Origin: Promethearchaeota archaeon
Lineage (GTDB): Archaea > Asgardarchaeota > Lokiarchaeia > Sigyniarchaeales > SOKP01
Assembly (NCBI GenBank): GCA_030606485.1
Contig: JAUWGH010000003.1
Location: 30,001-62,000, forward strand
Length of the DNA: 32,000 nt
Direction: 5' to 3'
In this document: positions 24,807 through 27,629 of the stretch, piece by piece
Layout of the letters: every line of letters begins with the position of its first letter
How positions within the stretch are numbered: position 1 is the first letter of the stretch
Notes under the pieces: model-generated
The model's input: only the letters and a program-made list of their open reading frames with translations
What the model was told of the DNA's origin: nothing
Database searches by the model: none
Position numbers and translations under genes: made by a program

Positions 24807-26114
24807 ATGGTTATAGGCATAGCATTATTTAGTTGGGATAAGAAGGTGGGTGCGGTTTTAGAGATTAAACATCCTGAAAATCTTGATTTATCACAAAATT
24901 TAATTAACAAAATATATATGACTCATGCTTATAGGCAGGAAAATCAAAAAGAAGAGTTAATGGAAATTAATCTGGAGAATCAAATTATTCTTAGTTACTG
25001 TGATATGTCTAAAGTTGTAAAACTTGGGTATGAAATAATAATCCTTATTGTTCATGAGAAGGAGAAAATACATCTTAAAAATTTAAAATCTGAATTATTT
25101 GAATTTGCGAGAGAAGTGTTAAATAAACCTAAAATTGAGAGAAAGAAGTATTTTTTTGAAAATCTCGATTTGTTTTTTAAAGAAACAGTAAAGAAAAAGA
25201 TATTATTAGTTGGACGAGCAGCTACAGGAAAATCTAGTATTAAGCAAGTTATTTTTGAAGGAAAGATGCCACAGGAGTTATTATCTAATCCCCTTGAGCC
25301 AACTCGTGGTTTAACACCCTCTGTTTATTCATGGTTAGATCTAGATTTGGGTATTTTCGATTCAGCTGGTCAAGAACTGGATTATTTATTAGATGATAAA
25401 AATGAACAAACCTTAGCATTCGAAAATACTGATATTGTAATATATATGTTTGATTACTTAACGTGGATTGAAAATAACGAAATAATAATAAAAGATATAA
25501 AAAAAGTTTCAAGAATTATTAAACAAGAGTCTTATAATGCTAAAATTATATTATTTCTACATAAAATTGACTTAATTAAGGAAGAAAACAGAGAACAAAA
25601 CATAAAAAATATCCAGCGAGAAATAAAAGAACAATTGAATTTGCAGATTTATTTTACAAGTCTTTATCCAAATTTAATTTATAATATTTATAATGCCTTT
25701 TATGAGATTTTAAGTAATTTTTCCAAGGAGACTATTTATTTTAAAGAGGTTTTGGATGAAAAAATTAAAGATAATTCAAAATCTATGTGTTTTATAACTA
25801 ATCAAAATAGTAGTATAGTTGTTCAGACAATGTCTAATGATTTCAATTTTAAATTAATTAACCAAATTCATAGATTAATTGCTCAATTTGACCAATCATT
25901 TGAAGACATGAGCATTAATGATAATATCGATTATATGATACTTTCAAGTTTGAAAAATTTTAATATTATTATGAAATTTCTTAATCTCTCGAATTATGAT
26001 CTCAAAAATTTAATTTTAATCTCTGAAACAATTAGTATCATTCAATTAATAGAATTTTGTGAGGAAATTAAAAATACTTTGAATAGATATTTTTATAAAG
26101 ACATTCAAAAATGA
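24807..26114 (+). CDS. Rag/Gtr-like GTPase with N-terminal uDENN/longin-like and C-terminal roadblock-like domains
   Basis: G1 GRAATGKSSIKQVIF, EPT, DSAGQ, LHKID, TSL (HKxD is the Rag-type G4). N-terminus IALFSWDKKVGAVLEIKHP; C-terminal MCFITNQNSSIV-led region. Confidence 0.8.
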   Translation: MVIGIALFSWDKKVGAVLEIKHPENLDLSQNLINKIYMTHAYRQENQKEELMEINLENQIILSYCDMSKVVKLGYEIIILIVHEKEKIHLKNLKSELFEFAREVLNKPKIERKKYFFENLDLFFKETVKKKILLVGRAATGKSSIKQVIFEGKMPQELLSNPLEPTRGLTPSVYSWLDLDLGIFDSAGQELDYLLDDKNEQTLAFENTDIVIYMFDYLTWIENNEIIIKDIKKVSRIIKQESYNAKIILFLHKIDLIKEENREQNIKNIQREIKEQLNLQIYFTSLYPNLIYNIYNAFYEILSNFSKETIYFKEVLDEKIKDNSKSMCFITNQNSSIVVQTMSNDFNFKLINQIHRLIAQFDQSFEDMSINDNIDYMILSSLKNFNIIMKFLNLSNYDLKNLILISETISIIQLIEFCEEIKNTLNRYFYKDIQK

Positions 26115-26123
26115 GAATCTAAA

Positions 26124-27629
26124 ATGGGTAAAAAGATAATTTTCGTTGGACCGCCTGGAGCGGGAAAAACTACCTTAAGAAAAGTCTTTTTTGAGGGAGA
26201 ATCTTCTTCAAGATTATTAGACTATGCATTGGAGCCTACGCATGGTAAAGAATCAGTTATTCTTCAGTTAAGTGAGGATGTTGGAGTGTTTGATCTAGCA
26301 GGTCAGGAAAATACAAGGTGGTTCGAAACAGATGACAAAGAAATTTTCTATGAATCAAAAATTCTTATAGTAGTTATTGATATTACAACGGACCATGAGA
26401 AAATTTTAGAGTTTATCGGAAAGGTTATTAAAACTCGAAATGAATTAATACCAACTGCAATCATTTATATATTAATTCATAAAATTGATTTGGTAGCACA
26501 AAAAACAATTAAAGCATTAAAATATAAAATTTCTGATGCTATTGGTAAGGAAAAGTTAGTTAAAATTGCATTTACAAGTATTCAGAAAGTGTATTTCCCC
26601 TCAACTTTTTCATTATTTATGGATATCTTAGATACATGTATAAGTGAAAGAGAAACTCCTGAAAGAATTGATTTGAATCTACTTCAAAATACTATTGATT
26701 TTTTATATGAATTACAAAAGAGTGTTTTAATTACGAAAAATGATTTACAGATAAGATTGAAAGCTCCTGATGAAATGATTGATTCTATAAGCAAACTATT
26801 GAGTAATAAAGGACATATTGATGTTTCAAAAATAAATGATAGAACAATTTTTAGTTTAACTGATAAAGGTAAAAATTATTTTAAAGAAATTTTAGATAAA
26901 TTTTCTCTGCAAAAATTGATTAAATTTGAGAAAGAACATTATAAGACAGAAGCCGCTTTAGGGCCAAAAGTTCCTCCATATTTAGGTTTTTTAGTGGCTG
27001 ATAAAGATGGAAAATCAATAATAAATGTAGAAGTATTTGACGGAGCTTTTGATTTATTCTTAAATACTGAAGAGGGAGCGATGAAAACTGATTTTGAGTT
27101 AATTCCTATGTTTATTAGTGCTTTAGAAAAATTCTCGGAAGAAATAAATATAAAGGACTTAGCAGGTTTTCAATTAAAGGGAACAAATATAGAAATGCAG
27201 ACTTTATCTTTTGAATTATATACGGTTACTCTTTTTATAAATCCAGAAACAAATGTTAAATTTTTTGAAGATCTAATCAGAGAATGGTTTGAAAATCTTT
27301 TTGAAGTACATAAAAAAGAAATTGAGTCTGCTATTGAGACAGGTTATATGACTAAAATTTCTAATTTAAATAAGGAAGGGAAAGAATGGTTGGAAAATCT
27401 TAACGAAAAATATAAAAACATGGCTATGAATCTAGAGATTTTTGATTTTGATCAAGCTAAAGTACTTTATCATCATATAGATGATATATCCGCAGATATT
27501 AATTTTAAATTTTCATTAATTTTAGAAAAAATTAAAAAATTAAAAATAGATTTGATGAAGGCGATATTAGTAGAAGACTTTCAAGAAGTAAAGGAAATTG
27601 CTAACAAAATCCGAGGAATCAAAGTTTAA
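26124..27629 (+). CDS. Rag/Gtr-like GTPase - winged helix - roadblock/longin-like - C-terminal helical (UVR-like) domain
   Basis: G1 GPPGAGKTTLRKVFF, EPT, DLAGQE, IHKID, TSI; wHTH wing FSLTDKGKNYF; FLVADKDGK...LIPMFISALEKFSEEI; tail KAILVEDFQEVKEIANKI. Starts 9 nt after the first Rag-like gene. Confidence 0.8.
   Translation: MGKKIIFVGPPGAGKTTLRKVFFEGESSSRLLDYALEPTHGKESVILQLSEDVGVFDLAGQENTRWFETDDKEIFYESKILIVVIDITTDHEKILEFIGKVIKTRNELIPTAIIYILIHKIDLVAQKTIKALKYKISDAIGKEKLVKIAFTSIQKVYFPSTFSLFMDILDTCISERETPERIDLNLLQNTIDFLYELQKSVLITKNDLQIRLKAPDEMIDSISKLLSNKGHIDVSKINDRTIFSLTDKGKNYFKEILDKFSLQKLIKFEKEHYKTEAALGPKVPPYLGFLVADKDGKSIINVEVFDGAFDLFLNTEEGAMKTDFELIPMFISALEKFSEEINIKDLAGFQLKGTNIEMQTLSFELYTVTLFINPETNVKFFEDLIREWFENLFEVHKKEIESAIETGYMTKISNLNKEGKEWLENLNEKYKNMAMNLEIFDFDQAKVLYHHIDDISADINFKFSLILEKIKKLKIDLMKAILVEDFQEVKEIANKIRGIKV

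Follow-up and report, generated by a model that had tools for sequence, protein, structure and literature searches.

The 32,000 nucleotides analysed here (hereafter the window) are positions 30,001 to 62,000 of contig JAUWGH010000003.1 from a Promethearchaeota archaeon (assembly GCA_030606485.1), and the subject of this study is a pair of adjacent Rag-like GTPase genes on the forward strand of this stretch. Gene 1 (P0001; 24807 to 26114) is an open reading frame (ORF) of 435 amino acids, in which a longin-fold domain precedes the G domain and a roadblock-type domain follows it. Gene 2 (P0002; 26124 to 27629) is an ORF of 501 amino acids, in which the G domain is followed by a winged helix, a roadblock-type domain and a helical tail. 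The spacer between them comprises 9 nucleotides (26115 to 26123, same strand) and is too short for a promoter; the G+C content of the region is about 25%. Both ORFs are present as stated in a preliminary description made from the sequence alone, which had also noted the 9-nucleotide gap.

Sequence features of the two GTPases

Both proteins belong to the Pfam family Gtr1_RagA (PF04670), gene 1 with 86.5 bits and gene 2 with 57.3 bits at a curated cut-off of 22 bits, and the top sequence matches of both in the Protein Data Bank (PDB) are RagA, Gtr1, Gtr2, and RagC. The G domain of gene 1 (residues 130–303; 25194 to 25715, forward strand) contains the complete set of motifs G1 to G5, namely GRAATGKS, T166, DSAGQ, HKID (residues 252–255), and TSL (284–286). 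That of gene 2 (residues 1–173; 26124 to 26642, forward strand) is equally complete, with GPPGAGKT, T39, DLAGQ, HKID (119–122), and TSI (151–153). The P-loop strings quoted in the preliminary description are likewise found, GKSSIKQVIF at residues 141–150 of gene 1 and GKTTLRKVFF at residues 14–23 of gene 2, as are its HKxD motif for G4 and its TS[I/L] motif for G5 in both proteins. In alignments of 108 full-length orthologues of gene 1 and 117 of gene 2, the P-loop, the switch-I threonine, DxxGQ, HKxD, and TS show little or no variation; since these nucleotide-binding motifs are intact in both, both proteins look like working GTPases. The full-length orthologues of gene 1 share 49–98% identity and come from more than 120 clusters of Promethearchaeota, and those of gene 2 share 43–91%, Promethearchaeum syntrophicum being among their sources.

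Conservation of the pair

Full-length orthologues of gene 1 are found in 25 of 69 sampled genomes of the family (68 plus that of the window). In 21 of the 25 species genomes with such an orthologue, gene 2 follows directly downstream on the same strand, and the spacing varies among these relatives from an overlap of 17 nucleotides to a gap of 38. Presence and absence of the two genes also go together: gene 2 is present in 23 of the 26 family genomes that have an orthologue of gene 1, or a fragment of it at a contig end, and are listed in both searches, and it is missing from all ten family genomes that lack a full-length gene 1 and are listed for gene 2.

Some loci show further copies or damaged ones. 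Two or three tandem copies of gene 2 type stand beside the pair in some genomes (loci L059, 6158–7681, and L072, 10782–13873). In genome G141 (L065, 6336–7846), the gene 2 orthologue is broken into two ORFs, 214 and 275 amino acids long, and in G177 (contig C207) an in-frame TGA is found in the gene 1 orthologue and an in-frame TAG in gene 2; these are possible pseudogenes or assembly errors.

Association with a two-component system

The pair directly adjoins an orthologous histidine kinase of about 710 amino acids in about 20 genomes; this kinase, with the domain order PAS-HisKA-HATPase (600–1560 bits), is situated either upstream in the same operon or, in convergent orientation, just past gene 2. 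An orthologous single-domain receiver of about 122 amino acids (160–250 bits), usually divergent and about 150 nucleotides upstream of gene 1, is likewise found in about 20 genomes; the orientations of kinase and receiver relative to the pair vary between genomes. Kinase and receiver are absent wherever the pair is absent in the genomes tested: in five genomes without the pair, 91–100% complete, receiver matches did not exceed 79 bits and kinase matches did not exceed 238 bits, the latter with partial coverage.

The window contains the orthologue of these receivers as a reverse-strand gene of 122 amino acids (REC, Pfam Response_reg; 21656 to 22024), which scores 160–180 bits against the receivers beside the pair in 20 other genomes. 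It is separated from gene 1 by a block specific to the window's genus (22460 to 24659), consisting of two forward-strand RHH-DHp-REC genes (22460–23320 and 23784–24659) with a HATPase remnant on the reverse strand between them. This remnant is an ORF of 109 amino acids (23334–23663) that contains the end of HATPase_c only. The same-genus genome G040 shares this arrangement of genes and possesses, at the same spot, a full histidine kinase of 668 amino acids (L053, 4488–6494); most of the kinase has therefore been lost by deletion from the window's genome.

By the seeds used, this genome contains 14 receiver and 14 kinase ORFs, and 4% of its sequence is no more than 5 kb away from one of them. 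Among its 16 Rag-like loci, only the pair and a single additional gene in the window lie near kinase or receiver genes, and the association of the pair with two-component genes is thus specific in this genome. The part of the window upstream of the pair (11201–24659) holds 5 of the 14 receiver-type and 4 of the 14 kinase-type ORFs, about a third of the genome's complement. The kinase and receiver link is the most informative feature of the pair.

On the other side, 3' of gene 2 and on the same strand (27762–30988), a calcineurin-like phosphoesterase of 629 amino acids is followed by a DNA methyltransferase of 416. This neighbourhood is common only to a same-genus genome and lies outside the conserved module. 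Scans of the window with Rfam models and for tRNAs gave no matches. A search of sequencing runs listed no RNA run, and its DNA matches were metagenomes from cold seeps and marine sediments.

Predicted structures and the roadblock domains

Structures were predicted with AlphaFold2 from the orthologue alignments, with confidence values (predicted local distance difference test, pLDDT) of 84 for gene 1, a good model, and 75 for gene 2, a fair one; topology was assigned by DSSP, and folds were compared with Foldseek and VIA-align on the whole models, whose result lists are filled by matches to the G domain. The best matches of both models are full-length RagA, Gtr1, RagC, Gtr2, and LokiRagO, and they span the G and roadblock domains together; matches in the ESM Atlas agree with a Rag-type fold for both.

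In gene 1, the C-terminal domain (residues 307–434; 25725 to 26108, forward strand) is of roadblock type, with the order alpha-beta-beta-alpha-beta-beta-beta-alpha. Residues 129–429 align by VIA-align to the whole of LokiRagO (PDB 8yl2; Z 19.9, 278 residues aligned) and to RagC (6nzd_G; Z 19.6, 279 of 299 aligned), and residues 128–306 to RagD (2q3f; Z 19.5). In gene 2, the G domain matches RagD with a Z of 17.6, and residues 2–396 align to LokiRagO with a Z of 16.9 over 246 residues, the winged helix appearing as an insertion; RagC and Gtr2 align to the same residues in the same manner. The model and this structural alignment place a roadblock-type domain at residues 286–395 (26979 to 27308, forward strand), after a linker of low model confidence (residues 262–281). 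Its central helix (residues 324–341) has a conservation of 0.86, the highest outside the G domain, and is a candidate interface.

Neither roadblock domain was matched in a search with Pfam Robl_LC7, and LokiRagO and LokiRagM have diverged too far for sequence searches from either gene to reach them. The preliminary description had proposed a roadblock/longin-like region at the C-terminus of each protein and had staked its reading on that fold; both models contain a roadblock-type domain there, and the reading stands on this point. In the ESM Atlas, residues 279–456 of gene 2 (26979–27623), which comprise the roadblock domain and the first part of the tail, match a cluster of stand-alone hypothetical proteins of 251 amino acids from Promethearchaeota, with a TM score of 0.57 over 166 aligned residues.

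A proposed two-GTPase switch and its alternatives

Gtr1-Gtr2 and RagA-RagC are joined through their roadblock domains. We consider it somewhat better than an even chance (roughly 55%) that the products of genes 1 and 2 likewise form a heterodimer, which would serve as a Rag-type switch linked to a two-component system. A switch of the Gtr1-Gtr2 type is proposed because of the tight pairing of the genes, their joint gain and loss, the roadblock domains of both products, and the conserved central roadblock helix of gene 2. The pair would be co-transcribed and its products joined by their roadblock domains into one switch with two GTPases. This switch would supply the GTPases of an accessory signalling module in Lokiarchaeales. 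The module's other components, a PAS histidine kinase located in the cytoplasm and a CheY-like receiver with a single domain, are most likely the input or the readout of the switch: the phosphorylated receiver, or the kinase, may set the nucleotide state of the GTPases or read it out. The longin domain of gene 1 may provide a G domain with a regulatory platform in the same polypeptide.

Several observations weigh against this reading. Adjacency and co-occurrence are indirect indications of heterodimerisation, and binding is inferred from them. One genus, represented by four genomes of 89–100% completeness (G019, G030, G156, and G117; loci L070, L071, and L074–L077), has kept gene 1, the kinases, and the receiver and possesses no gene 2 anywhere, and gene 1 is therefore not strictly dependent on gene 2. 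The only relatives of gene 2 in this genus are G-roadblock proteins of about 300 amino acids, which belong to the sister subfamily GR290 and lie on the contig of gene 1 in two of the genomes; such a protein may replace gene 2 where the latter is missing. In Promethearchaeum syntrophicum (MK-D1), the two orthologues lie 2 kb apart with two opposite-strand genes between them, and in Lokiarchaeum GC14_75 gene 2 is not found beside the gene 1 orthologue. Among longer proteins, no fusion of gene 1 with gene 2 was found at an E-value of 1e-20, which is weak evidence. In the window's own genus, the cognate kinase of about 710 amino acids is not adjacent to the pair. Furthermore, the solved Lokiarchaeal Rag-like proteins are, according to the titles of their PDB entries, a homotetramer (LokiRagO, 8yl2) and a monomer (LokiRagM, 8zla and 9m28).

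These oligomeric states fit a different explanation, according to which the two genes are co-regulated and their products do not pair: each would form its own homodimers or oligomers through the roadblock domain, gene 1 through its longin domain as well, and they would act at separate steps of the same pathway. The genus that keeps gene 1 without gene 2 fits this explanation too, as do the longin-containing GTPases of MK-D1, which were modelled as homodimers in PMC10933270. However, spacings of a few nucleotides or overlaps in 21 genomes, combined with joint presence and absence, are the usual pattern of subunits of one complex, and every genome examined has, in the island, one or more members of each of the two sister clades. 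We regard this explanation as unlikely, if still worth serious attention. A prediction of the complex between residues 304–435 of gene 1 and 260–501 of gene 2 gave a median of 0.44, compared to 0.35 for a control with an unrelated first chain, and is used neither for nor against the heterodimer.

The N-terminal longin domain of gene 1

The first 118 residues of gene 1 (24807 to 25160, forward strand) form a domain that, by DSSP of the model, has the longin fold: residues 2–118 show the order beta-beta-alpha-beta-beta-beta-alpha-alpha, with pLDDT values of 69–91 by block. The uDENN-like N-terminal domain named in the preliminary description is thus borne out as a longin fold of uDENN type. The domain contains the motif W10-D11-x3-G15; W10, D11, G15, and P23 vary little or not at all across the orthologues, and the residue after G15 is serine in 58, alanine in 43, and proline in 6 of 108. 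At position 69, the site of a candidate finger, 68 of the 108 (63%) have arginine and 35 (32%) have lysine. The protein studied here has K69, and the remark that its domain has no ARG motif is right for this genome.

No sequence match to longin, uDENN, Folliculin, or NPR2 families was found by Pfam searches with the domain itself, with 35 orthologues, and with 132 wider relatives, and two longin-domain profiles matched no solved longin in the PDB. The sole lead to known longins is a feature score of 0.81 in the ESM Atlas to a cluster in which 19% of the members carry NPR2. The domain belongs to a wide family of 168 clusters at 50% identity, without a Pfam model, whose members stand alone or are fused to many domains. 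Some occupy the N-terminus of proteins of 350–590 amino acids that also contain TackOD1, TrmB/HTH, Arf, or Rag domains, and others are embedded in proteins longer than 2000 amino acids. The W-D-x3-G hallmark at the turn between beta1 and beta2 is shared by about two thirds of 150 family representatives. A stand-alone paralogue of 128 amino acids in the same genome (G000, C10:700025-700411) is homologous to the longin domain of gene 1 (hhalign probability 96.9%). This paralogue (L049, 526–912) reads WDNEIGP, the W-D-x3-G-P spacing of C9orf72.

For the longin of C9orf72, W33-D34 and G38-P39 are described as essential or conserved (PMC12290439). The domain of gene 1 resembles the longins of C9orf72-SMCR8, FLCN-FNIP, and NPRL2-NPRL3 in its topology, and its W10-D11...G15 is spaced as W33-D34...G38-P39. 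It differs from these longins of eukaryotic GTPase-activating protein (GAP) complexes in having no Pfam match to Folliculin, NPR2, or uDENN, in the lysine at the candidate finger, in the rarity of proline after the glycine (6 of 108), and in being fused in cis to a Rag-type GTPase. The match to the C9orf72 longin is a lead from a short motif and no demonstrated relationship. A second protein of the window, situated between two kinases (15465–16103, reverse strand; 211 amino acids), has sub-threshold scores to Folliculin (18.7 bits, cut-off 23.3) and HisKA (17.7 bits). Between this Folliculin-like longin-DHp protein and the longin of gene 1, hhalign detected no kinship (probability 1.5%).

The winged helix and helical tail of gene 2

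Residues 184–259 of gene 2 (26673 to 26900, forward strand), situated after the G domain and before the roadblock domain, form a winged helix: three helices and a beta-hairpin wing (H-H-H-beta-beta) extend over residues 184–245, and one more helix follows. No winged helix-turn-helix (wHTH) family was matched above its curated cut-off in a scan of 35 orthologues; at most ten of them gave sub-threshold matches to HTH_34, DUF6293_C, HTH_45, HTH_24, TrmB, or MarR, the best with an E-value of 2e-4. In the third helix, usually the one for recognition, the majority fraction averages 0.49 and 1 of 13 positions is conserved; the wing strands (0.43–0.59) are among the least conserved parts of the protein.

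This domain raises the question whether gene 2 encodes a GTP-controlled DNA-binding regulator whose winged helix would pass the signal of the kinase/receiver/GTPase module on to transcription. The model shows an unambiguous winged-helix topology, several orthologues show the sub-threshold similarity to HTH_34, HTH_24, MarR, and TrmB, and the receiver of the cassette has no output domain of its own. Against these points stand the poor conservation of the third helix and of the wing strands and the sister subfamily GR290, which has no winged helix and yet occurs in the same islands; moreover, winged helices serve as protein-binding modules too. A role as DNA-binding regulator appears improbable to us, and the direct nucleic-acid binding that the preliminary description had suggested receives no backing as a conserved property.

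The C-terminal tail (residues 397–500; 27312 to 27623, forward strand) consists of three long helices with a conserved LEKIKKLK-x-NLMKA motif. Neither UVR nor any other Pfam family was matched in it, in this protein or in 35 orthologues, at E-values up to 1–10. Thus, of the additions originally reported for gene 2, the winged helix (as a topology of the model) and the helical tail are retained, whereas the designation of the latter as UVR-like is not.

Evolutionary origin of the pair

The preliminary description had equated gene 1 with RagC and gene 2 with RagA. Whether the genes are of A or C type was judged here by the scores of their family profiles on PDB chains, the tree of G domains having been built with no eukaryotic sequences. 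The profile of gene 1 scores 72.5 bits against RagA, 55–66 against Gtr1, 36–51 against Gtr2, and 44–48 against RagC; that of gene 2 scores about 43–51 against Gtr1 and RagA, 27–30 against Gtr2, and 21.6 against RagC. Both profiles therefore lean towards RagA/Gtr1. The P-loop regions of the two family consensus sequences, GKTTIKKIIFEG in gene 1 and GKTTLRKIFFEG in gene 2, are nearly identical, and GKSS, as seen in gene 1, is a peculiarity of the window's genus that departs from the family consensus.

Within the genome, genes 1 and 2 are mutually the closest paralogues, with 31% identity over the G domain and profile cross-scores of 86 and 105 bits, compared to 51–57 bits for the next paralogue. 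In the tree of 85 G domains (IQ-TREE quick search; support by the Shimodaira-Hasegawa-like approximate likelihood ratio test, SH-aLRT, only), gene 1 falls beside GR304 and gene 2 beside GR290, both of them shorter G-roadblock subfamilies from the same islands; together they form one clade with an SH-aLRT of 98, and the other Rag-like genes of the genome form a separate clade. Relatives of gene 1 at an E-value of 1e-30 are confined to the window's own order among the 300 Asgard genomes searched, and at this threshold neither of the two families turned up in other orders. The split between the two genes is old within the order, and the pair is no product of a recent duplication: what the preliminary description had named as an objection to its reading, recent sister paralogues, is correct as to close paralogy within the genome and incorrect as to recency.

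The original equation would make the pair the archaeal counterpart of the eukaryotic heterodimer, gene 1 corresponding to RagC/D-Gtr2 and gene 2 to RagA/B-Gtr1, with a split that predates the eukaryotes. It could draw on the resemblance of GKSSIKQVIF in gene 1 to the P-loop region of RagC, as quoted in that description, and on the side-by-side position of two paralogous Rag-type genes. We judge it very improbable, given that both family profiles score RagA/Gtr1 above RagC/Gtr2, that the consensus P-loops hardly differ, and that both families fall into one well-supported clade limited to one order in the genomes searched; in addition, other Rag-like genes of the same genome outscore both genes on the largely eukaryote-based Pfam model. 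Eukaryotic Rag/Gtr sequences were found by Vargova et al. to be nested among Asgard relatives. The evidence from sequence comparison favours a lineage-specific duplication within Lokiarchaeales that is not orthologous to eukaryotic RagA/B-RagC/D. The pair is real and conserved; its designation as a RagA/RagC mirror should be dropped together with the UVR label.

A more far-reaching proposal concerns the two sister clades. Lokiarchaeales may have evolved an independent obligate heterodimer, with one partner drawn from gene 1/GR304 and the other from gene 2/GR290. Its nucleotide state would be set directly by the His-Asp phosphorelay, with the phosphorylated single-domain receiver docking on the roadblock/longin platform and the cis longin acting as a GAP-type element of the C9orf72/FLCN kind. 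In this full form the proposal is doubtful, and we advance it as speculation.

Comparison with other systems

The pair is similar to the eukaryotic Rag/Gtr heterodimers: it belongs to the same Pfam family, has HKxD in place of NKxD, shows the order of G domain followed by roadblock domain, and aligns to them with Z values of 17–20, and here, too, two paralogous genes are involved that probably work together. Despite this general similarity, there are several differences. The pair adds a longin domain in gene 1 and a winged helix and a helical tail of about 100 amino acids in gene 2; it appears to be non-orthologous to both the A and the C type; it is accompanied in the genome by a histidine kinase and a receiver and not by Ragulator, GATOR, FLCN, or TOR; and its dimerisation is inferred.

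A combination of a small Ras-superfamily GTPase with roadblock and two-component parts is also found in bacteria, where the resemblance is a functional analogy only. In Myxococcus, MglA-MglB acts with RomR-RomX, and MglA is under receiver-dependent control; the actinobacterial conservon consists of the kinase CvnA, the roadblock protein CvnB, CvnC, and the GTPase CvnD, an operon that includes a DUF742 protein and whose GTPase is of MglA type. The two-component part is thus a receiver protein in Myxococcus and a kinase-like sensor in the conservon. In contrast to both, the window contains two GTPases, these are of Rag and not of MglA type, and the roadblock is fused to the GTPase. The locus is no actinobacterial conservon: kinase and roadblock domains are present, whereas the GTPases are of Rag type and no DUF742 match was seen.

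Among Asgard archaea, longin-Rag fusions were noted by Liu et al. 2020 (bioRxiv 10.1101/2020.10.19.343400), who also surmised that two-component systems, together with 'eukaryotic' longin regulators, remain the core of growth control in these organisms. In Tran et al. 2024 (PMC10933270), the authors describe longin-G-roadblock and G-roadblock architectures in Lokiarchaeia, which the two genes share, and an AlphaFold2-modelled, roadblock-mediated heterodimer of one operonic pair of MK-D1. For that pair, the text examined gives no accession, and it differs from the present one in that the MK-D1 orthologues of genes 1 and 2 are not adjacent. Earlier publications already cover fusions of longin and Rag, one Rag pair in an operon, and a link to two-component systems. 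No description of this pair, of the architecture G-winged helix-roadblock-tail, or of the four-gene module of kinase, receiver, and two GTPases was found in the literature examined. According to PMC10933270, genome layout rarely allows the partners of Asgard GTPases to be named.

Significance

The module is a small prokaryotic system with partners that can be named: two Rag-type GTPases, one kinase, and one receiver. In eukaryotes, Rag GTPases are a nutrient switch upstream of TOR, and the origin of their obligate two-paralogue design and of the longin and roadblock regulators around them is an open question on which this module bears. If the pair neither dimerises nor responds to the phosphorelay, it would be one more among many lineage-specific GTPase architectures of Asgard archaea. 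If it does both, it would represent a double switch of Rag type connected to signalling of the bacterial kind, and the two-paralogue design would be one that is able to arise more than once.

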